64,000 nucleotides of DNA from contig CALBZC010000026.1 of assembly GCA_937889945.1 (NCBI GenBank), forward strand, positions 64,871 to 128,870, given 5' to 3'. The notes below the pieces were generated by a model. That model saw only the letters and a program-made list of their open reading frames with translations. It was not told the origin of the DNA and did not search any database. Within the stretch, counting starts at the first letter, position 1; each line of letters opens with the position of its first letter. The position numbers and the translations under genes were made by a program. This DNA is from an uncultured Bacteroidales bacterium. GTDB lineage: Bacteria; Bacteroidota; Bacteroidia; Bacteroidales; UBA4417. Positions 1 to 12,403 of this stretch are shown here, piece by piece.

Positions 1-87
1 CATTTGATATAAAAATAGCCTATGGAGAAATTGTTAAAATACCCTACCCTGTATGCTGAAAAACTTTAGGGATAAAAACAACTAAAA

Positions 88-1554
88 ATGAAAAAGCTTC
101 GCCCTGTCATGTTTGTAGGAACCGGTTCGGATGTAGGAAAATCGGTGGTGAATACCGGATTTTGCCGTCTATTCTTACAGGACGGCTATACCCCTGCTCC
201 ATTTAAGGCGCAAAACATGTCGTTAAACAGCTACGTAACGCCTGACGGGCTGGAGATAGGAATTGCACAAGCCGCACAAGCGGAAGCTTGCGGCATTGCA
301 TGCACCGTAGAAATGAATCCTATTTTGCTGAAACCTACAAGTCATTCCAAATCGCAATTGGTACTAAACGGCAAGCCTCAAGGGAATGCAACCGCCGCAG
401 AATACTTTAACCATACCGATCGCGATATGCTTTTTGCAAACGCCATGAATGCCTTTGCCACGCTGCAAAGTAAATATAACCCTATTGTGATAGAAGGCGC
501 GGGAAGCATTTCGGAAATGAACCTGTGGAATAAAGATATTGTTAACATGCGCGTGGCTGCACACGTGCAAGCTGCCACATATTTGGTTGCCGATATAGAC
601 AAAGGAGGCGTGTTTGCCAGTGTTTACGGTTCTGTTAAACTGCTTCCCCCTCATCATCAGGATTTAATAAAGGGTATTATCATCAACAAATTCAGGGGCG
701 ATTTGTCTCTTTTTGAAGAAGGTAAAACCATTATAAAAAACATAACGGGGAAACCCGTGGTAGGCGTTATTCCTTACTATGACAATATCTACATAGAGCC
801 GGAAGATTCCGTATGCCTGAAAGAGAAAAATAAACGCATGGAAACAGGAAAAGTGAATATAGCGGTAGTGCGGCTGCCACACATGTCTAATTTTTCCGAT
901 TTCGATATGCTGGAACAAATGGCAGACATCAACCTTTTTTATACGGAAAATGCCGATGAGCTCAACGCTGCCGATATTGTTATTATTCCGGGCACCAAAA
1001 ACACACTGTCCGATTTGGCATTCATACAACAAAAAGGGATAGCCACTGCTTTGCAAGCACGACACAGGGAAAATAAACCCATATACGGCATTTGCGGAGG
1101 CTATCAGATGATGGGCGAACAAATATCCGACCCGCAAAGCGTGGAAGGCAACATTCAAAAACTTGACGGACTGGGCATATTGCCTGTAAAAACAACGATC
1201 TTAACCGACAAACAAACCCGCCAATGCGAATTTACTTTCCTTGACGAAAAAGACATCTGCAAAGGCTATGAAATACACATGGGGCAAACCACTTCACTTT
1301 ATGCACGCCCTGTATGCACACTTGCAAATGGGGAAAACGACGGCTATTTCGTCAATAGAAACACGTGGGGAAGCTATATACACGGCATTTTTAACAACCA
1401 CAGTGTTATTAAGTCCATTTTACAACAAATGCGCACGCAACCTCAACCCTATCTCAACCACCAAGCCCGCAAAGAAGAAAGTTATAACAAGTTGGCCGAC
1501 TTGATACGCTCAAGCGTGGACGTGGACTATATTTACAAAAGCATGCAATTATGA
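88..1554 (+). CDS. cobQ: cobyric acid synthase CobQ
   Basis: 488 aa. N-terminal CobQ/MinD-type P-loop region (VMFVGTGSDVGKS). C-terminal GATase-like domain with nucleophile Cys (GICGGYQMMG) and YIHG. Followed by cobD and cbiB with overlapping stop/start codons. Confidence 0.9.
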   Translation: MKKLRPVMFVGTGSDVGKSVVNTGFCRLFLQDGYTPAPFKAQNMSLNSYVTPDGLEIGIAQAAQAEACGIACTVEMNPILLKPTSHSKSQLVLNGKPQGNATAAEYFNHTDRDMLFANAMNAFATLQSKYNPIVIEGAGSISEMNLWNKDIVNMRVAAHVQAATYLVADIDKGGVFASVYGSVKLLPPHHQDLIKGIIINKFRGDLSLFEEGKTIIKNITGKPVVGVIPYYDNIYIEPEDSVCLKEKNKRMETGKVNIAVVRLPHMSNFSDFDMLEQMADINLFYTENADELNAADIVIIPGTKNTLSDLAFIQQKGIATALQARHRENKPIYGICGGYQMMGEQISDPQSVEGNIQKLDGLGILPVKTTILTDKQTRQCEFTFLDEKDICKGYEIHMGQTTSLYARPVCTLANGENDGYFVNRNTWGSYIHGIFNNHSVIKSILQQMRTQPQPYLNHQARKEESYNKLADLIRSSVDVDYIYKSMQL

Positions 1555-2585
1555 TAGAAGGACACGGAAACGACATATATAAATATCAAGGAAAAATAGC
1601 CGGCGATTTTAGCTCCAATATTGTGTATTGCGGAATGCACAAGGATTTGGAAGCTTTTTTGTCTAAACAAGTAAAACGTGCCGGCAATTACCCCGACCCT
1701 CATGCTTTGGAGCTGAAAGAAAAAATTGCAGCATTCCACCACATAAAAAGCACACAGGTTTTGGTTACAAATGGTTCGGCAGAAGCATTTTACCTGATAG
1801 CACACTCCATGCAAGGAAAAAAATCCGCCATTGCCATTCCCTCATTTGCCGAATATGAAGATGCATGCAAGTTATATAAACACGACATTACCTATCAATC
1901 CATACATACAATAGATACAAACATATCCGTTGACACAGATGCGTTTTGGTTGGGTATTCCAAATAATCCTGACGGGAAAATCACAGATACAAACACCTTA
2001 AACCATCTTCTCGCCACCTATGCACAAACACGCTTTGTTGTAGATACAGCATACGAAGCCCTCTGCCCAGCCTGCAAGCCGCTTACTTCATTGCATGAAA
2101 AATATTTTAATCTTATTTCCGTTCATTCCCTTACCAAAACCTTTGCTATTCCCGGTTTACGTATAGGCTATATAGTGGCGGCTCCCGATATTATTGAAAA
2201 CATACAACACTTATGCATTCCCTGGAGTGTGAACACCCTTGCCATTGCCGCCGGATGTTATATCCTCGATAATTATGCCCGCCTGCAACCCGATGTAGAA
2301 AAGATACATGCCGAAAGCAGCGCTTTCCAAAAACAAATAAGCGCTATAAAAGGATTGAAGGTTTATCCTTCCGATTGCAATTATTTTTTGGTACAAATTA
2401 TCAACGGGGCAACTGCTTCAGTCCTCAAACAATACCTTATAGAAAAACACGGTTTATTAATACGCGATGCTTCTAATTTCAGGGGATTAGACAATACCTA
2501 TTTCAGGCTTGCGCTGCAAAACAAAGAACTCAACCATCAACTTATCACCGCCCTTAATAAATGGGCAACTACCATACATGGATAG
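1551..2585 (+). CDS. cobD: threonine-phosphate decarboxylase (CobD/CobC-type PLP aminotransferase fold)
   Basis: 344 aa. N-terminal GHGND, NNPDG, and PLP-lysine context SLTKTF. ATGA start/stop overlap with cobQ. Lies between cobQ and cbiB. Confidence 0.8.
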   Translation: MIEGHGNDIYKYQGKIAGDFSSNIVYCGMHKDLEAFLSKQVKRAGNYPDPHALELKEKIAAFHHIKSTQVLVTNGSAEAFYLIAHSMQGKKSAIAIPSFAEYEDACKLYKHDITYQSIHTIDTNISVDTDAFWLGIPNNPDGKITDTNTLNHLLATYAQTRFVVDTAYEALCPACKPLTSLHEKYFNLISVHSLTKTFAIPGLRIGYIVAAPDIIENIQHLCIPWSVNTLAIAAGCYILDNYARLQPDVEKIHAESSAFQKQISAIKGLKVYPSDCNYFLVQIINGATASVLKQYLIEKHGLLIRDASNFRGLDNTYFRLALQNKELNHQLITALNKWATTIHG

Positions 2586-3513
2586 ATTTTATATTTATAT
2601 TATTCCTTTGCTTATAGGTTTCGTGCTTGATAGCTTACTGGGCGACCCACACCGCTTGCCGCATCCTATCCGTTTTTTTGGCAACTGTATATCTTTTGCC
2701 GATAGGCGCTTTAATAAGGGTGAGCATAAAAAGCTAAAAGGCTTGCTCAGCGCGGCAATACTCATCGTGCTCACATGGCTGACGTTGTGGGGCGCCACCT
2801 ACGCTCTGCTTCAAAAAAGCATGACGCTCTACTACGTTTTTGCTTCCGTTATGTTTTTTTATGGCATAAGCAATCGCAGCCTTATTTCCGAAGCCTTGAA
2901 AGTTGAAAAGTCGCTACTGGCTGATGATATAGAAAAAGCACGTCTAAATCTCAGCTATATTGTGGGGCGCGACACAGCACAACTCTCAGCACAAAAAATA
3001 CGGGTAGCTACTTTGGAAACACTTGCCGAAAATTTGAGCGACGGCATTATAGCGCCTGTATTTTATTATGCCATTGGGGGCATTCCGCTTATGTTTGCCT
3101 ACAAAATGGCGAACACGCTGGATTCCATGATAGGCTACAAAAACGAGAAATATAAAGATTTCGGCTGGTTTGCCGCCCGCTTTGATGATGTGGCAAATTT
3201 TATCCCTGCACGCATTACGGCAATGCTGATGGTGCTAGCAAGTTGCAGCGCGAGAGGATTGTTTTTTATATTCCGCTACGGGCACAAGCACGCCAGCCCC
3301 AACGCGGGCTACCCTGAGGCTGCACTCGCGGGCATTTTGGATTGCCGCTTTGGCGGACCCAATCTATACCATGGCATACTTGTAGAAAAACCTTACATCG
3401 GCAGCAATAACAGAGCCGTTACCCATACCGATTTTATAAAAAGTTGCCGGATAAATATCCTGAGCGTGCTGCTGATGCTTGCAGGAACAACACTTTTGTT
3501 GTGCTTAATATAA
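2578..3513 (+). CDS. cbiB: adenosylcobinamide-phosphate synthase CbiB
   Basis: Track ORF starts at 2509. The ATG at 2578 (MDRFYIYIIPLL...) overlaps the cobD stop and gives 311 aa, the usual CbiB size. Multi-TM protein with GDPHRLPHPIRFFG and NAGYPEAALAGIL motifs. Confidence 0.85.
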   Translation: MDRFYIYIIPLLIGFVLDSLLGDPHRLPHPIRFFGNCISFADRRFNKGEHKKLKGLLSAAILIVLTWLTLWGATYALLQKSMTLYYVFASVMFFYGISNRSLISEALKVEKSLLADDIEKARLNLSYIVGRDTAQLSAQKIRVATLETLAENLSDGIIAPVFYYAIGGIPLMFAYKMANTLDSMIGYKNEKYKDFGWFAARFDDVANFIPARITAMLMVLASCSARGLFFIFRYGHKHASPNAGYPEAALAGILDCRFGGPNLYHGILVEKPYIGSNNRAVTHTDFIKSCRINILSVLLMLAGTTLLLCLI

Positions 3514-3572
3514 GTGTGCGGACAATATAATAGCTTTCATTCCCTCCGTGCTACATATCCTCCATGTTAAAG

Positions 3573-3609
3573 ATTTCAATAATAAATTCTACGATAGTGC
3601 GATTAAAAG
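3573..3609 (-). repeat. solitary degenerate CRISPR repeat (array-2 type)
   Basis: ATTTCAAT[7-nt insertion]ATTCTACGATAGTGCGATTAAAAG. The 3' 24 nt match the 8797-8959 repeat with one mismatch. Same orientation as both arrays, with no leader-like sequence next to it. Confidence 0.7.
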
Positions 3610-3662
3610 GATGAAGCTGTTAAGTTGTATGAAAAAATGAATAAAGTGGAATAGCAGTATAA

Positions 3663-3896
3663 TTATAGCCCGTCATCTGATTGTATGAAGTCGAAAAATG
3701 CAGCGCGGATGATAAGGAATATTAAACCTAAAAGCGGAATAAAAGAGGCATATTTTATAATCCATAAAATGATATGAAAAAAAGTAATATTGTGTAAGAA
3801 ATAATCTAAAGTCCATGCAACTATACTGATTACGATAGCATAAAAGAGAGGATCTGTATATTTTTTAATATTTCTCATGTTACAAAGATAATACAA
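3663..3896 (-). CDS. small hydrophobic protein (2 predicted TM helices), function unknown
   Basis: 77-aa ORF; a more likely start is MRNIKKY at 3878. Two long hydrophobic stretches and very AT-rich. Lies inside the repeat-bracketed insert. Coding status not proven. Confidence 0.3.
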   Translation of the reverse strand: MYYLCNMRNIKKYTDPLFYAIVISIVAWTLDYFLHNITFFHIILWIIKYASFIPLLGLIFLIIRAAFFDFIQSDDGL

Positions 3897-3932
3897 AAAT
3901 TATGCAAATATATAATTTTATAAAAATAAACT

Positions 3933-4455
3933 ATGGCAAATGTGAGTAGTGCGCTGGCGTTAGCCTTGATAGTTTCGGCAAACACCAATAATGCGCGCGC
4001 GGAAATGGGTAGTTTCGGGCATTTTATTGTGGGTAAAATGAAGCAAATGCGTGATGCGGGAGCAAAGATGCAGGTTACAGGTAAAAATATGCGCCAAAGC
4101 GGGTTGGATGATGTGAAGCAGGGATTGGCTGCTATTGCGCCTGTGGCGTTTGCGGCAAAAAAAGCGATGAGTTTTGAAGATGCCAGAGCTGATTGGGCTA
4201 AAGTGGCTAATGTGGATAGAAGTAGTGTTGAATTTAAAAAAATGAATGGAGAGGCGTTAAAGCTTGGTCGTTATTTGGCTAAAGATGGGGAGGAAGCTTA
4301 TTCTTTGTTTAGTTCGCTAACAGCGAGTGGTATTAAAGATAGTGATTTAAAATATGTCTCTAAAATAGCCGGAGAGGCGTCTGTGGCGTTTGATATGATA
4401 GCAGATGAAGCCGGTACTGTCTATACTGGAATAAAAAAGGCAATAGGGCTTCAAA
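3933..4455 (+). pseudogene. 5' fragment of a phage tail tape-measure-like gene, truncated by the CRISPR array
   Basis: Residues ~70-175 show the tape-measure core pattern (KKAMSFEDARADWAKVANV..EALKLGRYL..LTASGIKDSDL..GEASVAFDMIADEAG..GIKKAIGL). Similarity ends at ~4450, and the ORF then reads through a degenerate repeat and a spacer to a stop at 4520. Locally higher GC than the flanks. Confidence 0.6.
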
Positions 4456-6926
4456 ATTTCAATTCTAAAATAGTACAATTAAAAGCTTTGAAAGAACTTT
4501 CGTATAAGTTATCATCTTAAAATTTCAATTCCAATATGGTGCAATTAAAAGTACAACTAAGTCTTTTGAGGGCGCCCATGTTTGGTTATTTCAATTCCAA
4601 TACGGTGCAATTAAAAGAAAAAAATAAAGACATGAACTTACAAGAATTAACGTTTCAATTCCAATATGGTGCAATTAAAAGATAAATACTATACGTCCTA
4701 CCGTATAGCAAAAAACCTTTCAATTCCAATATGGTACAATTAAAAGTCCCGGATACATCCTGCATGTTTTTAGCGAGATTTTCAGTTTCAATTCCAATAT
4801 GGTACAATTAAAAGTACTTGCTATATATGTGCAGGAGATGTTGTTTATACGTTTCAATTCCAATATGGTACAATTAAAAGTGAGCAAACAAACGCGGCAT
4901 TACAAGCCCTCGCGCAGTTTCAATTCCAATATGGTACAATTAAAAGTACAATTGCTTCGTATTTTTATTAATATCAAAAAGAGTTTCAATTCCAATATGG
5001 TACAATTAAAAGTCAGAGGGCGAAACGGGTTTTGTAGGACTACTGTTTGGTTTCAATTCCAATATGGTACAATTAAAAGACCCTTGTGTTCTTTGTCTGA
5101 TTCTATAAGTATAGTGTTTCAATTCCAATATGGTACAATTAAAAGGGAGTGCAGAATTTAATCCTTCTACAGAAATAAAGAGTTTCAATTCCAATATGGT
5201 ACAATTAAAAGTGTTGGTTATCATATTAATAGTTTGTATAGTCCTTAGTTTCAATTCCAATATGGTACAATTAAAAGATTCAAATGCAGAGGCTATGCAA
5301 ATATTTAAAAAAGCGTTTCAATTCCAATATGGTACAATTAAAAGGAAACTAATATTTCGTATGGGGATTTATTTAAAATGTTTCAATTCCAATATGGTAC
5401 AATTAAAAGCAGAAAAGTATTTTATATGAGATGTATGCCTACGGGGTTTCAATTCCAATATGGTACAATTAAAAGATATCTCCTTACACGTGAACTTGCC
5501 AAACTAACTGTGTTTCAATTCCAATATGGTACAATTAAAAGTACGATTACATGTCTCCCGCTGCGCACCAAGTGCGTGTTTCAATTCCAATATGGTACAA
5601 TTAAAAGGATGCTCGAGACCGTAAAAGCTCAAATGGCTGTTTTGTTTCAATTCCAATATGGTACAATTAAAAGAATTTATATTCTACCCGAGATAATTCC
5701 GTATCATGTTTCAATTCCAATATGGTACAATTAAAAGATAATAACACATGTCAAGTTCAATTGAGGCGTAATGGGTTTCAATTCCAATATGGTACAATTA
5801 AAAGCCAAACAATTCAACGATTGCTCCGGCATAATTACGTTTCAATTCCAATATGGTACAATTAAAAGTCAGTGTCGGCGGCGCATGGCAGTATTCCTAC
5901 TAACGTTTCAATTCCAATATGGTACAATTAAAAGTACAATCTGTATATCACGAAAATCGCCGAAATCCAGCAGTTTCAATTCCAATATGGTACAATTAAA
6001 AGTAAGGAGTTTGAAAATTTACACTTGTCGTTAAATCTGTTTCAATTCCAATATGGTACAATTAAAAGACAATTCGTTTTTACCCCCTTAAACCATAAAA
6101 AAAAGTTTCAATTCCAATATGGTACAATTAAAAGTAGTAACCGAAGACGGCAAGGTATATGCCATAGATGGTTTCAATTCCAATATGGTACAATTAAAAG
6201 GGTGTAATGATAGAATAAAAGAGTTATTAACACAGTTTCAATTCCAATATGGTACAATTAAAAGTTAAAACCGCCCTTGCAAACGACACGACAGTGCAAG
6301 GGTTTCAATTCCAATATGGTACAATTAAAAGAATTAACACATACCCTTTAACAGAAGCTATATTACAGTTTCAATTCCAATATGGTACAATTAAAAGTTT
6401 GTTTTTTTCTATGACCTTCATAAAAGCATTATGTTTCAATTCCAATATGGTACAATTAAAAGCAAGAGTAGGTAGCATGGGAACATCAGCCATGCGTAAG
6501 TTTCAATTCCAATATGGTACAATTAAAAGAATACTTGGCCGTCTTCGCCAAATGGGTCTGTATTTGTTTCAATTCCAATATGGTACAATTAAAAGACGGA
6601 CAAGAAGGTTGGGAGTCTACTAAAAAAGCGCGTTTCAATTCCAATATGGTACAATTAAAAGGGAACAGGTCAAGCCGCTGCAGCAACGGCTTCACCAGGG
6701 TTTCAATTCCAATATGGTACAATTAAAAGGCTAAAGGCTTTGAGGCTCAAAAGGGCTGTAAACAAAGTTTCAATTCCAATATGGTACAATTAAAAGCGCT
6801 TTCACTTTATCTAAATCAGTTGAAACATTTTGTTTCAATTCCAATATGGTACAATTAAAAGTTCGATGACAACGATAAGCTTATTGCTTTTTCACGGTTT
6901 CAATTCCAATATGGTACAATTAAAAG
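4456..6926 (-). CRISPR. CRISPR array 1: 38 x 30-bp repeats, 37 unique spacers (34-38 bp)
   Basis: Plus-strand repeat GTTTCAATTCCAATATGGTACAATTAAAAG. Repeat starts: 4456, 4522, 4588, 4652, 4717, 4785, 4851, 4917, 4983, 5050, 5116, 5182, 5248, 5315, 5380, 5446, 5512, 5578, 5644, 5708, 5775, 5839, 5905, 5973, 6039, 6105, 6171, 6235, 6302, 6368, 6433, 6500, 6566, 6632, 6700, 6767, 6832, 6897. The 33 copies from 4785 onward are identical; variants occur only at the low-coordinate end. On the minus strand the repeat reads CTTTTAATTGTACCATATTGGAATTGAAAC. It ends in ATTGAAAC, the classic 8-nt crRNA 5' handle of Cas6-processed type I-B/III repeats. Confidence 0.97.
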
Positions 6927-7083
6927 TCGTTATTTTTAAAAATACAACAGCCTAGTTTTATTGGGATTCAGCCCGTTTTTTCTTCCGCAAAAATAACAAA
7001 AAGTTGTCGATGTGCCATGCTATAAAAATACCCGCTCAGCGACAACTTTATATATCTATCTTATTTTCAGCATATCAAAGAGC
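6927..7083 (-). promoter_or_regulatory. CRISPR leader 1 with candidate promoter and inverted repeat
   Basis: About 125 bp are ~95% identical to 8960-9084, and weaker similarity continues further. The minus strand carries TATTTTTG (plus coordinates 6988-6995), matching the Bacteroidota -7 consensus TAnnTTTG about 60 nt upstream of the first repeat. Inverted repeat AAGTTGTCG (7001-7009) / CGACAACTT (7040-7048), with a third CGACAACTT at 7141-7149. Confidence 0.7.
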
Positions 7084-7390
7084 TTTTTTGTATATTTTTT
7101 ACTTTATCCTAACACAATTTACATCATTTTTCAAATTGATCGACAACTTAAAGACTTAGATAATTGTATAAAGCAAAGTATATCAATAATTTATACAATC
7201 ATTCTTTTTAGGGATAAAAATAACGAAAATATTATTCTTTTGCCTGCAAACTTCTAATAAAATATTCTCTTTTCAAAAAATTTAAATAAAAATGCGATGC
7301 ATCATATACATTGAGCTATATAGTACTGATACGCTATACGTGCCAATGTAGGTAGTACGGATTATATATCAAGCACTCCTGTTAACTATA

Positions 7391-8512
7391 TTATTTGTTG
7401 TCGAAAGAAATTTCTTTTAATGTATAATTTGTGCTTCTTCCGCCACTTAGCTGTTTTTCCAGCATATTTTTTCGTATTAAATCCTGAATATCGCGAAGAG
7501 CGGTATCTTGTGAACATTTATTAATTTTCCCCCACTTGGTAGTGGTTAACGTTCCTTCAAATCCATCAAGCAATTTATTAATTGTTTTGCGTTGTCTGTT
7601 ATTGAGCATGGTGCTAGCGTGGTGTTTCCAAAATTCAGCCTTATACAAAACGTTGGACAGCGTTTTGGCTGTAGAATCAATGGCATTTATCAGGCATTGC
7701 AAAAACCATATAATCCATTCCGTTATATCTGTATCCCCTTTCTGCGCTTGCTCCAATTGCTCATAATATCGTTTTCTTTCAAGTCTAATTTGTGCAGACA
7801 TACTATAGAAGCGCCGGGGGCTTTTGTCCGACCGTGCCAGCATCATATCGGTGATAGCTCTCGTTATCCGCCCGTTTCCGTCATCAAAAGGATGAATGGT
7901 AACAAACCATAAATGCGCAATAGCAGCTTTAAGAACAAAGTCTGTTTCACGCTCGTTTTCAAACCAATCAAGAAATTTTTTCATTTCGCCCTCTATTCTT
8001 TGGGAGTTTGGCGCTTGAAAATGAACTTTTTCCTTTCCCATTGCGCCGGACACCACCTGCATAGGTCCGCTTGTGTCTTTTCGCCATTCCCCAACGGTTA
8101 TTTTATAAAGATTGCTCCACCCTGTGGGAAATAATGCAGCATGCCAACCAAATAGTCTCTCTTTTGTTAAAGGCAAATCGAAGTGTTGTGTGGCATCAAG
8201 CATCATTTCAACAATGCCGTCAACATGGCGTTCTGCCTCCACCGCGCCCGCAATGTCTAGTCCGAGTCGGCGTGCAATCGAAGAGCGTACTTGTGCTATT
8301 TCTAAATATTCCCCTTCGATTTCAGCGGATTTCGTAATATCTAAAGTCAGCGTATTTAACAAGGCTTCGTTTTGTAAATCAAAGCCTAAAGACTCCATTC
8401 TACCCAAAAGCCTTCCTTGCACATTTCTTGCTTCCGCAAGTTTTATAAGAACTTTTTTATCATCCCAGGTAAAATTTGTCCAATTTTCTTTTTCGTGTAT
8501 ATAAATTTTCAT
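7391..8512 (-). CDS. Fic family protein (class II, AMPylase-type active site, C-terminal wHTH-like tail)
   Basis: Canonical Fic motif HPFDDGNGRITR (plus coordinates 7859-7894). N-terminal inhibitory-helix motif SAEIEG, i.e. (S/T)xxxE(G/N). The probable true start is MKIYIHEKENWTNFTWD at 8512, typical of the Fic N-terminal domain. The track ORF extends to 8533. Confidence 0.85.
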   Translation of the reverse strand: MKIYIHEKENWTNFTWDDKKVLIKLAEARNVQGRLLGRMESLGFDLQNEALLNTLTLDITKSAEIEGEYLEIAQVRSSIARRLGLDIAGAVEAERHVDGIVEMMLDATQHFDLPLTKERLFGWHAALFPTGWSNLYKITVGEWRKDTSGPMQVVSGAMGKEKVHFQAPNSQRIEGEMKKFLDWFENERETDFVLKAAIAHLWFVTIHPFDDGNGRITRAITDMMLARSDKSPRRFYSMSAQIRLERKRYYEQLEQAQKGDTDITEWIIWFLQCLINAIDSTAKTLSNVLYKAEFWKHHASTMLNNRQRKTINKLLDGFEGTLTTTKWGKINKCSQDTALRDIQDLIRKNMLEKQLSGGRSTNYTLKEISFDNK

Positions 8513-8608
8513 TCTCCGCAAATTAAGCAACAAATATACAACTTATTCTCCGCAAATACTATTTTCTCCGCAAAAAATGCATGGATTACATAAACTAATC
8601 TCCGCATA
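8512..8608 (-). promoter_or_regulatory. cluster of 11-mer direct repeats at and upstream of the fic start
   Basis: TTCTCCGCAAA occurs perfectly at 8512-8522, 8546-8556 and 8564-8574, with the variant ATCTCCGCATA at 8598-8608. Spacing is 34/18/34 bp. The first copy abuts the fic ATG. Confidence 0.5.
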
Positions 8609-8796
8609 GTCCATTCTCCTTTCTTAAATATAATAAACGCAATAAATAAATGCGCATTTTTGTTTTTATTTAACCGATTTTCAACGACTTATAGTTCATT
8701 TTTGAAATTTTACCGCTAAATATATAATGCGTTTATTATATAAAGAGAACAGGATTGCTTGTGGGGCTGGGAGTGGGGAGCAGAGAAGTATTATAT

Positions 8797-8959
8797 GTTT
8801 CAATTCTACGATAGTGCAATTAAAAGCCTGATATGTTTTATCTCTTGAAGAATTTTTGTTGGAGTTTCAATTCTACGATAGTGCAATTAAAAGTTTGCCA
8901 TTTGCTCCTCGCGAGTAAGCAGAAAATTAGTTTCAATTCTACGATAGTGCAATTAAAAG
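8797..8959 (-). CRISPR. CRISPR array 2: 3 x 30-bp repeats, 2 spacers
   Basis: Identical repeats GTTTCAATTCTACGATAGTGCAATTAAAAG at 8797, 8864 and 8930, with spacers of 37 and 36 bp. It differs from the array-1 repeat at 5 internal positions (11, 13, 14, 17, 20). Same ATTGAAAC tag on the minus strand, and a leader copy follows immediately. Confidence 0.85.
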
Positions 8960-9116
8960 CCGTTATTTTTAAAAATACAACAGCCTAGTTTTATTGGGAT
9001 TCAGCGCGTTTTTTCTTCCACAAAAAGAACAAAAAGTTGTCGATGTGCCATGCTATAAAAATACCCGCTTATCGACAACTTTAATACATTTCTTTTATTT
9101 TCAGTATACCAATGAA
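8960..9116 (-). promoter_or_regulatory. CRISPR leader 2 (duplicate of leader 1)
   Basis: Near-identical to 6927-7050. Inverted repeat AAGTTGTCGAT (9034-9044) / ATCGACAACTT (9071-9081). The position equivalent to the leader-1 -7 box reads TCTTTTTG instead of TATTTTTG. Confidence 0.7.
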
Positions 9117-9408
9117 CTTTGCTTTTTATATTGTATGTAGGCAAAAAAACAAAATAGTTTTTACTTCTGCGACAAGTTTAAAAATAAATAGAACCATAAA
9201 AAAATGCAGCTTGTAAATACCCTTACAAAAATATAAGTCTTGACTGTACAAATTTACAAAAATAAAAAGCTACTCTGCCACTTTGACTTTATTTTATACG
9301 TGGCAGGCTATTTGTTATGTATAAACCGTAATTTTGAATTTTCCTGCTGATAAGATAATTTATTATCAGCGTATTCATAATTCATTAATTTAAAACTAGT
9401 TAACACTT

Positions 9409-10056
9409 ATGTTTAAAAACATGAAACATAAAAAAGAAAACGAAAACTTCTCGGGTGCATCTCAGGAGAATGAAAAAACTGACAATATAGCAGAAAATGA
9501 ATGCGGTGGCGAGGAAAATTGCGACAGCGAAACATATACGGGAGAAACCGAAAATCAAAATATAGAGGAAACGCAACACAATTCCATAACCGAAGAAACG
9601 ACTTTTAAAGAAAAAGAAGCGGATTATCAAAAAAAGATAGCCGAGAGTAATGATAAATACCTCCGTTTATATTCCGAGTTCGATAATTTTCGCAAACGAA
9701 GCTTGCGCGAACGTATAGAGCTAAGCAAAACCGCGTCGGAAGATATTATCAAGGATCTTTTGCCCATATTGGACGATTTTGACAGAGCGGCGGCTACCAA
9801 AAACGAAAATGGTGAAAATATAGTAGATGAGGGTATCTTACTGATTATATCAAAGTTAAAGAAAACCCTTGCCAATAAAGGCTTAAAGGAAATGACTTCG
9901 ATAGGTGAGGATTTTAATACCGATTTCCACGAAGCTATTACTACCATTCCGGCTCCTACGGAAGAACAAAAAAATAAGATTATCGACGAAATAGAAAAAG
10001 GTTATTCGCTCAACGATAAGGTTATTCGCTTTGCAAAAGTTGTGATTGGCGCATAA
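9409..10056 (+). CDS. grpE: nucleotide exchange factor GrpE
   Basis: 215 aa. Acidic low-complexity N-terminus, then the GrpE core (YLRLYSEFDNFRKR ... DFNTDFHEAI ... GYSLNDKVIRFAKV). Followed by dnaJ. Confidence 0.9.
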   Translation: MFKNMKHKKENENFSGASQENEKTDNIAENECGGEENCDSETYTGETENQNIEETQHNSITEETTFKEKEADYQKKIAESNDKYLRLYSEFDNFRKRSLRERIELSKTASEDIIKDLLPILDDFDRAAATKNENGENIVDEGILLIISKLKKTLANKGLKEMTSIGEDFNTDFHEAITTIPAPTEEQKNKIIDEIEKGYSLNDKVIRFAKVVIGA

Positions 10057-10173
10057 AAAACAGAAATTGAAAAATCAAAAGCGAATATGATGAAAAGGAT
10101 GAAAAATAAATATTATATATTAAATATTTTATAGTTTCATTCACTATATTTACTCTACTACTAACAAAAAAAG

Positions 10174-11358
10174 TTGACAGTGGCAACAAAACGCGATTAT
10201 TACGAAATATTAGAAGTTTCAAAAGATGTAAACGATGCGGACTTGAAAAAAGCGTATCGCAAAATGGCTTTAAAGTATCATCCCGACAGAAATCCCGACA
10301 ACAAAGAGGCTGAAGCAAAATTTAAGGAGGCTGCCGAGGCTTATGAAGTCCTCAGCGACCCCGAAAAACGTAAACGATACGACTCTTTCGGTCATGACGG
10401 ACTCAAAGGAGGCGCCGGCGGTTTTAGCGGTGGTGGCATGAATATGGAAGATATATTCAGCCATTTTGGCGACATCTTCGGCGGTGCTTTTGGCGGTGCC
10501 TTTAGTGGTTTTGGCGGCAGCGGAAGAGCCCAATCGCGTGGTGGTAGGCGCGTAGCGCGCGGAAGCAACCTGCGCATTAAAGTGAGGCTGACGCTGGAGG
10601 AAATAAACGCCGGTGTAGAGAAAAAATTAAAAGTAAATAAATATGTAAGTTGTTCACACTGCAAGGGAAGTGGCGCGGAAAGCGGTTCAGGAGTAGCAAC
10701 CTGTCCCACCTGTAACGGAACAGGGCATGTAACAAGAGTTACCAACACCTTTTTGGGACAAATGCAAACATCATCCGTATGCCCTGAATGTGGAGGCGAA
10801 GGACAAATTATAAAAAATAAATGCAAGCAATGTGGTGGTAACGGCATTGTAAAAGGTGAAGAGGTAATAAGCGTGAACATTCCCGCGGGCGTATCGGAAG
10901 GCATGCAGCTTTCCGTGAGCGGCAAAGGAAATGCTGCGCCACGAGGAGGTATTCCGGGCGATTTAATCGTGCAAATTGAAGAAATACCACATGAAACCTT
11001 GCACAGGGAAGGGAATAATCTTTTCTACGATTTGTATGTGAGCATGCCCGATGCTGCATTAGGCGCATCAGTAGATATTCCTACCCTTGACGGGAAAGCA
11101 CGTATTAAAGTAGAAGCCGGAACCCAAGCAGGACGCGTATTGCGATTAAAAGGGAAAGGCTTACCTCCAATCAATTCATACGGAAGTGGATACGGCAAAG
11201 GCGATTTATTGGTAACCGTGAACGTATGGACACCCAGAAATCTTTCAAAACAAGAAAAAGAAATGCTTGAAAACTTACGCAATTCCGAAAGCTTTAAACC
11301 TAAGCCGGACAGCAAGGACAAAAGTTTTTTCGACCGCGTGAAAGAGTATTTCGAATAA
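10174..11358 (+). CDS. dnaJ: molecular chaperone DnaJ
   Basis: J domain with HPD (KYHPDRNPD), a G/F-rich linker, and four CxxCxGxG zinc-finger motifs ([32 protein letters not shown]). Start is TTG at 10174 or GTG at 10180 (MATKRDYYE). Confidence 0.95.
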
Positions 11359-11365
11359 ATTAACG

Positions 11366-11393
11366 AAAAGCAACTATAAAGGTTGCTTTTTTT
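11366..11393 (+). terminator. rho-independent terminator after dnaJ
   Basis: Stem GCAAC (11370-11374) / GTTGC (11382-11386), extended by A/T pairs. 7-nt loop, followed by a T7 run. Confidence 0.55.
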
Positions 11394-11467
11394 ATTTTTG
11401 CCACATTCCATGTTTATAAGATTTGTATTTTTACACACATATATACACATAATACGCTTATTACTTT

Positions 11468-12403
11468 ATGATATTACAAGCAGAGTCGGTTACTAAACAA
11501 TATGGAGACTACACCGCCCTTGACCACCTGGATTTAAACATCCCGGAAAACAGCATCTTCGGCTTATTAGGACCCAACGGAGCAGGAAAAACTACCTTTA
11601 TCCGCATTGTCAACCAAATTACGGCGCCCGACCAGGGGCGGGTTATATTCAAAGGAGAACAACTCAATCCCAACCACATATCCCAAATAGGCTATTTGCC
11701 CGAAGAGCGCGGATTATACAAGAAAATGAAAGTGGGCGAGCAGGCTTTGTATTTGGCGCAGCTTAAAGGGCTTAGCATGCACGAAGCCAAAATACGCCTA
11801 AAAAAATGGTTCGAGAAATTTGAAATTCAATCGTGGTGGGACAAAAAGGTAGAAGAATTATCTAAAGGCATGCAGCAAAAAATACAATTTGTGGTTACGG
11901 TTGTGCATGAGCCCAAGCTACTTATCTTTGACGAGCCTTTCAGTGGTTTTGACCCTATTAACGTGAATTTGCTGCGGGACGAAATCCTGGAACTGCGCAA
12001 AAACGGAGCTACCATCATTTTTTCTACACATAATATGGCATCGGTAGAAGAACTCTGCGACAGCATAGCCCTTATCAATAAGTCGAAAAAAATACTGGAC
12101 GGACAAGTAAAAGAAATACGCCGCAAATATTTTACCCATAGCTACAATATTGAATATACCGAAAAAGAAGGCAATGCATTCTCTTTAGAATCGTTAGGTT
12201 ATGAAGTATTAACTTCAAAGTCGCAAGCCGAGAGCAAAACAGCTACCATCAGGATTCCTGAAAACATGCCTGCAAACAATTTGTTGGGCGAACTTTTACC
12301 ACACGTGAATGTTACTGCCTTCAGCGAGCTTATTCCCTCAATGAATGATGTGTTTATATCTGCCGTAAAGTCCGTAAATGCCAATCATATTTTAGAATCC
12401 TAA
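11468..12403 (+). CDS. ABC transporter ATP-binding protein (ABC-2 exporter type)
   Basis: Walker A GPNGAGKTT, signature LSKGMQQKI, Walker B LLIFDEPF. Followed by an ABC-2 permease. Confidence 0.85.
   Translation: MILQAESVTKQYGDYTALDHLDLNIPENSIFGLLGPNGAGKTTFIRIVNQITAPDQGRVIFKGEQLNPNHISQIGYLPEERGLYKKMKVGEQALYLAQLKGLSMHEAKIRLKKWFEKFEIQSWWDKKVEELSKGMQQKIQFVVTVVHEPKLLIFDEPFSGFDPINVNLLRDEILELRKNGATIIFSTHNMASVEELCDSIALINKSKKILDGQVKEIRRKYFTHSYNIEYTEKEGNAFSLESLGYEVLTSKSQAESKTATIRIPENMPANNLLGELLPHVNVTAFSELIPSMNDVFISAVKSVNANHILES

Follow-up and report, generated by a model that had tools for sequence, protein, structure and literature searches.

How does the beginning of a phage tail gene come to lie at the oldest end of a bacterial CRISPR array? 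The question is raised by a 64,000-nt stretch of DNA from an uncultured Bacteroidales bacterium (contig CALBZC010000026.1, positions 64,871 to 128,870), hereafter the window, in which an 846-bp insert (3610–4455) separates a relic CRISPR repeat (3573–3609) from the terminal repeat (4456–4485) of CRISPR array 1. Sequence comparisons confirmed that the open reading frame (ORF) 3933–4520, which starts within this insert, encodes the N-terminus of a phage tape-measure protein (TMP), intact over 173 residues, and is carried as a non-essential pseudogene stub. In our judgment, there is about an even chance that this stub is the fixed scar of homologous recombination between a phage and the array, most likely between a spacer and its protospacer, followed by deletion of the prophage. 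The array material on both sides of the stub, the near-flush junction with the terminal repeat, and a second array–phage fusion that is base-exact (the L097-type locus) support this reading.

The stub is the 5′ end of a tape-measure gene

The 195-aa product of ORF 3933–4520 (plus strand) matched two PHROG tape-measure families (phrog_28, E 9e-13; phrog_14441, E 1.5e-12) and, under the gathering score, the Pfam domain PhageMin_Tail (PF10145; profile positions 3–72 of 201, E 3e-4), a low score explained by the fact that only 70 of the 201 profile positions remain. An exhaustive HMMER search over 1.84 billion representatives returned 216 matches, nearly all of them proteins of 600–740 aa aligned over their own residues 1–172, and the top matches tested were clear TMPs (phrog_28 E 1e-74 to 1e-94, PF10145 above the gathering score). 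The N-terminus of the ORF aligned in register from residue 1–5, at the start codon of the TMP family, and homology ran to ...KKAIGL (L173, nt 4451), where the relatives go on ...GLSVxETKKAFDATNAI.... The first-pass annotation, made from the sequence alone, had proposed a tape-measure N-terminus here of which only the gene’s 5′ end survives; the strong similarity to tape-measure proteins, aligned at the start, bears out both parts.

Phage-derived DNA extends over 3914–4451 on the plus strand, i.e., 19 nt of upstream sequence, the ribosome-binding region, and codons 1–173 of the tape-measure gene, cut inside the PhageMin_Tail domain. It is followed by four bases, CAAA (4452–4455), which separate the repeat from the last TMP codon in the alignment and can be assigned to neither side, and then by the last ~21 codons of the ORF, which consist of terminal-repeat and spacer 1 sequence and end in a chance stop codon. 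The fragment thus resembles TMPs of the PF10145 and phrog_28 families in its 173 homologous N-terminal residues, with an aligned start and 46–50% identity to the best full-length relatives, but differs from them in that only about a quarter of the protein is present (173 residues versus 600–740), its conserved domain is cut short, the C-terminus is translated from CRISPR sequence, and the gene is outside any tail module. Its neighbors are the host gene cbiB, 420 bp upstream, and the CRISPR array downstream. Read from these features, it is not a functional TMP by length, by domain integrity, or by genomic context.

The closest full-length TMP gene was found on an IMG/VR contig (L020; 50% amino acid identity), with a nucleotide identity of 59% to window positions 3914–4419 that starts 19 nt upstream of the ATG. 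Because this gene sits in a sheath-containing tail module (gene order: tail sheath, TMP, tail protein), the donor phage probably had a contractile tail. No source phage closer than 50% was found: a word-based search matched the stub alone, with no homologue of the short form outside this species, and GenBank phages reached 32% at best. Of 24 positions at which nine full-length relatives do not vary, the stub matches 19, a count that weakens the argument that it is undecayed; decay is by this count neither proved nor excluded.

The junctions are real, and the stub is inherited

The exact 195-aa product was encoded on 16 contigs (ENA, NCBI GCA_036821885.1, and Logan), all of them with cbiB, relic repeat, insert, and array in this order, and a second allele, in which a 1-bp deletion cuts the ORF to 128 aa, was found on 12 further contigs with the same relic, insert, and terminal repeat. 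The junction count therefore stands at no fewer than 28 contigs (16 + 12), which come from independent assemblies of different samples in three sources. An assembly artefact or chimera, the objection that the first-pass annotation had asked to be checked at both junctions, was rejected: the junction is shared by at least 28 contigs, cbiB lies within 420 bp of the stub and anchors it, and the arrangement of cbiB, relic, insert, and terminal repeat co-occurs with strain-specific single-nucleotide polymorphisms and differing spacer content. Between lineages, the insert was 99.4–99.7% identical and the cob genes 99.15–99.6%, similar values from which it follows that the insert is inherited with the chromosome.

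The stub is dispensable, since one strain lineage (L009–L013) carries the frameshifted 128-aa allele. It is also old relative to spacer turnover. One strain (L010) has only the two left-most array 1 spacers of the window (spacers 1 and 2) in common with it, and another (L009) a single internal spacer (window 5080–5115, L009:11613–11647) with all neighboring spacers different; this lone internal spacer points to recombination, or to independent loss, inside arrays instead of simple growth at the leader end. Array 2 also differs in spacer content in L009. It follows that both arrays are active and that array 1 has its conserved, old end on the left. No relative was seen with an intact host gene in place of the stub, but in the single contig scan made with CbiB the closest matches came from Draconibacterium/Breznakibacter at ~60% identity, too distant for reading the ancestral state of the interval from cbiB to grpE.

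Against this background, it is extremely unlikely that the chimera is a domesticated gene, i.e., that the 195-aa product, or the 71-aa membrane ORF described below, is expressed and useful, for instance in superinfection exclusion or as a decoy. The start codon and upstream region are intact, promoter-like hexamers lie upstream, the ORF is open in the window lineage, and 19 of the 24 invariant positions are kept, all of which would suit such a role. A frameshift to 128 aa in a lineage of 12 contigs does not, and neither do a TMP domain cut at profile position 72 of 201, a C-terminus made of translated repeat and spacer, and the restriction of the short form to this species.

The stub lies at the trailer end of array 1

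CRISPR array 1 (4456–6926; CRISPR RNA [crRNA] sense on the minus strand) comprises 38 repeats of 30 nt and 37 spacers of 34–38 nt, followed by a leader of ~175 nt (6927–7101, minus strand), of which a 93%-identical copy lies to the right of array 2. The latter (8797–8959, minus strand) has three repeats, GTTTCAATTCTACGATAGTGCAATTAAAAG, of the same subtype as the relic, and two spacers, and is followed by its own leader (8960–9135) and then by grpE and dnaJ. A scan of metagenome contigs with the generic repeat yielded about 100 arrays. For two of the same-family arrays with available flanks (L067 and L105), Cas1b, Cas4, and Cas3′ are encoded to the right of the array in the orientation GTTTCAAT...AAAAG, and their Cas1b proteins match TIGR03641 at 431 and 442 bits (cut-off 304). 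By this association, the window repeats would belong to the type I-B family, and the organism’s own cas genes, judged from the repeat, to the same subtype. No cas1, cas3, or cas4 homologue was found anywhere in the 64-kb window although both arrays turn over between strains, so the cas locus must lie elsewhere, remote from both arrays.

Four observations agree on the polarity of array 1: the position of the cas genes in L067 and L105, the variant repeats at its left end, the duplicated leaders on the right, and the strain comparison. The leader is thus on the right, the minus strand encodes the crRNA (in this sense the repeat has ATTGAAAC at its end), and the stub is at the trailer end. The same cas position, together with the spacers of L010, upheld the initial placement of the fragment at the old, distal end of the array.

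The two leaders (compared over 6897–7101 and 8930–9135) are 93% identical across about 154 nt and 73% identical across a further 55 nt or so. The two leader–array units look like a duplication that has since diverged in repeat subtype; between them lies a Fic-family (Fic/DUF4172) gene on the opposite strand (7391–8533, minus).

None of the spacers examined matched a phage carrying this tape-measure gene, a correspondence that the first-pass annotation had proposed to look for. The 81 unique spacers from the window and its sister strains gave chance-level matches only to contigs L020–L031, L097, and L134–L136 and to the masked window. Against GenBank phages, the whole of array 1 gave no match and the relic chance-level matches only.

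Array material brackets the insert

The relic lies 59 nt beyond the end of cbiB and is the most distal repeat in crRNA sense. It spans 37 nt (3573–3609, plus strand) and reads ATTTCAAT, seven extra nucleotides, and TCTACGATAGTGCGATTAAAAG; ATTTCAAT at 3573–3580 is its displaced 5′ part of eight bases, as fits a 7-nt insertion, and positions 3585–3609 match the array 2 repeat at 24 of 25 bases. The chance expectation for the 23-nt relic core with up to three mismatches is 0.00 in the window, and the relic shares its orientation with the repeats of both arrays, so that the early description of a solitary repeat of array 2 type with a 7-nt insertion was accurate. Between strains, the relic varies (ATTTCAAT versus ATTTGAAT). 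On the other side of the insert, whose limits of 3610 and 4455 were verified, the degenerate, trailer-most repeat of array 1 (4456–4485, plus strand; ATTTCAATTCTAAAATAGTACAATTAAAAG) matches the array 1 consensus at 26 of 30 positions, also as first described, and is identical in all strains, even those in which all downstream spacers are different.

In type, this terminal repeat is intermediate between the relic/array 2 type and the array 1 type, and the first four or five left-hand repeats of array 1 are variants. The cores read TCTACGATAGTGCG in the relic, TCTAAAATAGTACA in the terminal repeat, TCCAATA(T/C)GGTGCA in repeats 2–4 of array 1, and TCCAATATGGTACA in the array 1 consensus. From relic to terminal repeat to the next repeats, these types form a graded series, and the locus looks like one old array that was interrupted by the insert.

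In crRNA sense, a 3-bp stem is possible at the repeat center: CCA-TAT-TGG for array 1, CTA-TCG-TAG for both array 2 and the relic, CTA-TTT-TAG for the terminal repeat, and a wobble form, CTA-TAT-TGG, for strain L009. Between subtypes, the middle pair of this stem is altered on both sides.

TMP homology stops at 4451, no more than 4 nt before the boundary of the terminal repeat, i.e., in register with it to within 0–4 nt. We estimate that a random breakpoint would fall this close to the spacer side of a repeat at ~5 of 66 positions, a chance of about 8%.

With direct repeats in array orientation on both sides and at least the right boundary flush, the insert has a geometry that could also be produced if Cas1–Cas2, with Cas4, had integrated a phage fragment of ~846 bp at a repeat and duplicated that repeat. 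An oversize spacer of this kind is nevertheless very unlikely. The insert is not a spacer by length, with 846 bp versus 34–38 bp for the 39 spacers of the window, and in type I adaptation Cas4 and Cas1–Cas2 measure prespacers to a fixed length. The flanking repeats, moreover, are not identical: 4 of their last 22 positions disagree and the relic contains the 7-nt insertion, and the left 320 bp of the insert are without phage homology. We give a slim chance to the bolder claim that the insert is a literal oversize spacer made by I-B adaptation with repeat duplication or, in a milder form, that the terminal repeat and the TMP antisense are still processed into a working guide against phages with this gene, trailer stubs being functional fossil spacers that arose by recombination and not through Cas1–Cas2.

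Insertion sequences, too, can place a non-spacer insert between repeats, and arrays of the same repeat family provide examples (L047:117–1300, with a DDE_3 transposase, and L080:1305–1725, with DDE transposase genes or fragments). The window insert differs from these in that it lacks a transposase, inverted repeats, and a target duplication, and holds a fragment of a structural phage gene.

The left part of the insert and the neighboring genes

The left part of the insert (3610–3913; no strand assigned) is AT-rich, with 26% GC, and showed no detectable homology to phage, leader, or repeat sequences. Neither blastn nor tblastn detected similarity between it and the region upstream of the TMP gene in L020. 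Two further candidates were rejected: a third, decayed leader, as alignment scores against both leaders fell inside the shuffle null, and decayed array sequence, as no repeat trace exceeded the null in 3610–4455.

On the minus strand of this part lies a small ORF (3663–3896; 77 aa, or 71 aa from an ATG at 3878) with two to three hydrophobic segments. The tiny opposite-strand membrane ORF of the first-pass annotation is thus present and hydrophobic; the length of its open frame is borderline against shuffled sequence (p about 0.05). It is an ORFan, with no homologue in Pfam, PHROG, or 5.8 billion clusters, and may not be a real gene. In L020, a small hydrophobic ORF (9748–10053, minus strand) lies directly upstream of the TMP start on the opposite strand, placed as 3663–3896 is in the window. 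Homology between the two was considered and dismissed, as the 77-aa ORF has no detectable sequence similarity to the L020 reverse ORF.

The host anchor on the left, cbiB (2578–3513, plus strand; CobD/CbiB family, with Pfam PF03186 in the product of identical contigs), is the final gene of a cobalamin operon that also includes a cobQ-like gene (88–1554, plus strand) and an aminotransferase gene (1551–2585, plus strand). Rfam and tRNA scans of positions 1–12000 and a terminator scan of 3300–4700 found nothing, and no integrase, att site, or tRNA occurs near the stub.

Phages carry the relic-type repeat

Phages carry the repeat subtype of the relic and array 2. The core of this subtype had a single match in IMG/VR, on contig L032, which is part of L134. 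There, L134:15232–15400 (L032:3380–3530), after a tyrosine integrase, is a mini-array in which a 35-nt spacer is enclosed by a degenerate and a terminal repeat, with an intrinsic terminator behind it; the mini-array has Mu-type head genes on its other flank. A sister phage (L135:14300–14400), 86–97% identical to L134 in nucleotides, has a single repeat with the same terminator, which indicates that the phage-borne array gained or lost one unit. The terminal repeat of L134 and the window relic are identical over 26 nt, with extra bases at the same position, and this relic-like architecture occurs in only these two elements among 3485 repeat cores. The spacer of the L134 mini-array matched only itself in IMG/VR. 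L134 was rejected as the donor phage of the stub, given its GC content of 47% versus 38% in the window and the absence of genes in common with the window or with the TMP relatives. Elsewhere, solitary same-family repeats flank a MobA/VirD2 relaxase gene (L127:3387–6320), which suggests a mobilizable element.

These phages make it conceivable that the donor brought its own solitary repeat or mini-array, which recombined with a host repeat, so that the relic would be, at least in part, the phage’s repeat. This could have happened by a single crossover followed by deletion, or by a double crossover of a linear fragment with the phage repeat on one side and a protospacer matching a host spacer on the other; the latter accounts for both flush boundaries without any further deletion. 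Integration of viruses through homology to solitary repeats has been proposed (Faure et al. 2019b, as summarized in PMC8616872). We nonetheless consider this origin improbable, even with L134 and L135 carrying the subtype, the 26-nt identity, and the standing of L032/L134 as the sole IMG/VR match for the array 2 core. L134 is not the donor by GC content (47% versus 38%) and gene content, and its extra bases can also be read as a 30-nt repeat with two mismatches; the G variant is common in the family. A repeat-to-repeat crossover alone, furthermore, leaves the mid-domain cut of the TMP gene at the other repeat unexplained, and a relic of host origin would agree with the gradation of repeat types.

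A second array–phage fusion

The repeat scan of IMG/VR led to contig L031, and the same locus was found in L037, L097, and L138 (four assemblies). Its array has at least 137 repeats of the same family, and the trailer-most repeat, a perfect copy, is fused to a baseplate-hub gene that lacks its last 36 codons (L097:4654–5609; also in L037, L031, and L138), with TMP and other tail genes upstream of the truncated gene. The hub gene is intact in two related phages (L139:6001–7005 and L140:6001–7008; 83–86% amino acid identity), and nucleotide homology to them runs to ...CATTACTACGA, the final base before the repeat, which fixes the junction to within 0–1 nt. Five spacers of this array match L139/L140, so that host holds spacers against that phage family. 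In crRNA sense, the 5′ motifs beside the five protospacers are CCA, CCT, CCT, GCG, and CAT, the commonest form being CCW. A metagenomic chimera formed through a shared 36-mer cannot be fully excluded for the L097-type locus, whereas it is excluded for the window.

The first-pass annotation had offered two routes to the window locus, recombination with a repeat-bearing phage and the scar of a prophage in an older, longer array. Both are compatible with the present data, as both the repeat-bearing phages L134/L135 and the L097-type case exist.

A proposed origin

Under the reading we favor, to which we give about even weight against all others, a phage genome would have recombined into the old part of the array, the likeliest partners being a spacer and the matching protospacer inside the TMP gene. 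Such a crossover places phage DNA flush against a repeat, where a spacer ends. After a single crossover, the whole phage would sit between two copies of the spacer, of which the copy on the old side keeps its protospacer-adjacent motif (PAM) and would be open to attack by the host’s own I-B effector and Cas3. An imprecise deletion from this PAM-flanked copy would then remove nearly all of the phage together with the older spacers beyond; this deletion may have been selected for, or caused, by Cas3 attack on the second, PAM-flanked target copy. The survivors would be the 846-bp piece beside the PAM-less spacer copy with the original terminal repeat, and the remains of the oldest repeat. In its current state, the stub is without function of its own and is carried as the array trailer while the spacers to its right turn over.

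Self-targeting of prophages by CRISPR systems and Cas3-driven genomic deletions have precedents (PMC7708048; Vercoe et al. 2013, as cited in PMC8616872). A deletion of this kind would explain the near-total loss of the phage with the PAM-less copy beside the repeat spared. The window differs from these precedents in having no self-targeting spacer today and no cas genes, and any role of Cas3 here is purely conjectural.

Several points weigh against the spacer–protospacer scenario. In the window, a coincidence of ~8% for the breakpoint is not negligible, and the scenario accounts neither for the 4 nt CAAA nor for the ~320 bp at the left of the insert. No spacer equal to the 36 nt before the junction occurs in any strain examined (81 unique spacers), and the left junction lacks the second spacer copy that the scenario would call for there, with 3610–3645 unlike 4420–4455. 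The donor phage is unsampled and its relatives are 46–50% identical at best, so that the PAM beside the presumed protospacer is unreadable; nor do the 19 of 24 invariant positions tell how the age of the insertion compares with the divergence of the repeats beside it. In the L097-type case, the bases after the junction in L139/L140 read TCA/GCA, not CCW, and the other junction (repeat, spacer, and 3′ part of the hub gene) was not found in IMG/VR. Finally, two other trailer ends of the family abut apparently truncated host genes: an N-terminal prolyl-oligopeptidase fragment in one (L060:2041–2400; a weak match to Pfam profile positions 2–66 of 414), and a gene with an AraC-type helix-turn-helix (HTH) domain in the other (L077). 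Truncation at a trailer thus need not involve phage integration.

The last of these points, with the missing spacer and the missing duplicate copy, also speaks for ordinary decay, in which a prophage resided to the left of array 1, with an old repeat or array remnant on its other side, and illegitimate deletions, independent of homology in CRISPR sequence, left 846 bp of it. The breakpoint near the repeat would then be a coincidence, for which the window alone gives a probability of only about 0.08, or it would reflect that any trailer flank starts where the last repeat ends. We regard this history as possible but unlikely, as the L097-type junction is base-exact at the repeat boundary of an array with spacers against that very phage family, repeat material lies on both sides of the stub, and the vicinity is devoid of integrase, att site, and tRNA.

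Relation to known systems and implications

Experiments have demonstrated recombination between a spacer and its phage target (Varble et al. 2019, Nat Microbiol 4:956, in the summary of PMC8616872). In common with those recombinants, phage DNA is joined to the array in register with a spacer/repeat boundary, and in the second case the host has spacers against the phage family (L037 versus L139/L140). As summarized in PMC8616872, however, the experimental product was a transient phage–CRISPR hybrid detected by transduction in staphylococcal type II/III systems, whereas the window holds a chromosomal, vertically inherited 846-bp scar at a type I-B-family array in a Bacteroidota-like genome, for which the matching spacer is inferred. 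Phage-borne solitary repeats and mini-arrays are likewise on record (Faure et al. 2019b; Medvedeva et al. 2019; RNA anti-CRISPRs in PMC10651486; review in PMC11656645). L134 and L135, with one or two repeats of the relic/array 2 subtype and then a terminator, conform to these; the window feature is chromosomal instead, and L134, with its different GC content, is no relative of the TMP donor. In the available text of the literature searched, no description of a fixed natural product of phage–array recombination was found.

The stub is not a new system but a concrete natural trace of an interaction for which the other sources are experiments and proposals. Together with the base-exact second case, the locus may be a natural scar of that interaction, inherited in a bacterial population beside arrays that are still turning over. 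A prediction for large surveys follows, namely an accumulation of phage-gene breakpoints at offset 0 from repeat boundaries. Should the spacer-guided route be true, the trailer ends of arrays would be a place to seek remnants of past infections far longer than a spacer, and CRISPR memory could serve as a landing pad by which entire phage genomes are drawn into the chromosome, while the same memory can help delete integrated phages.

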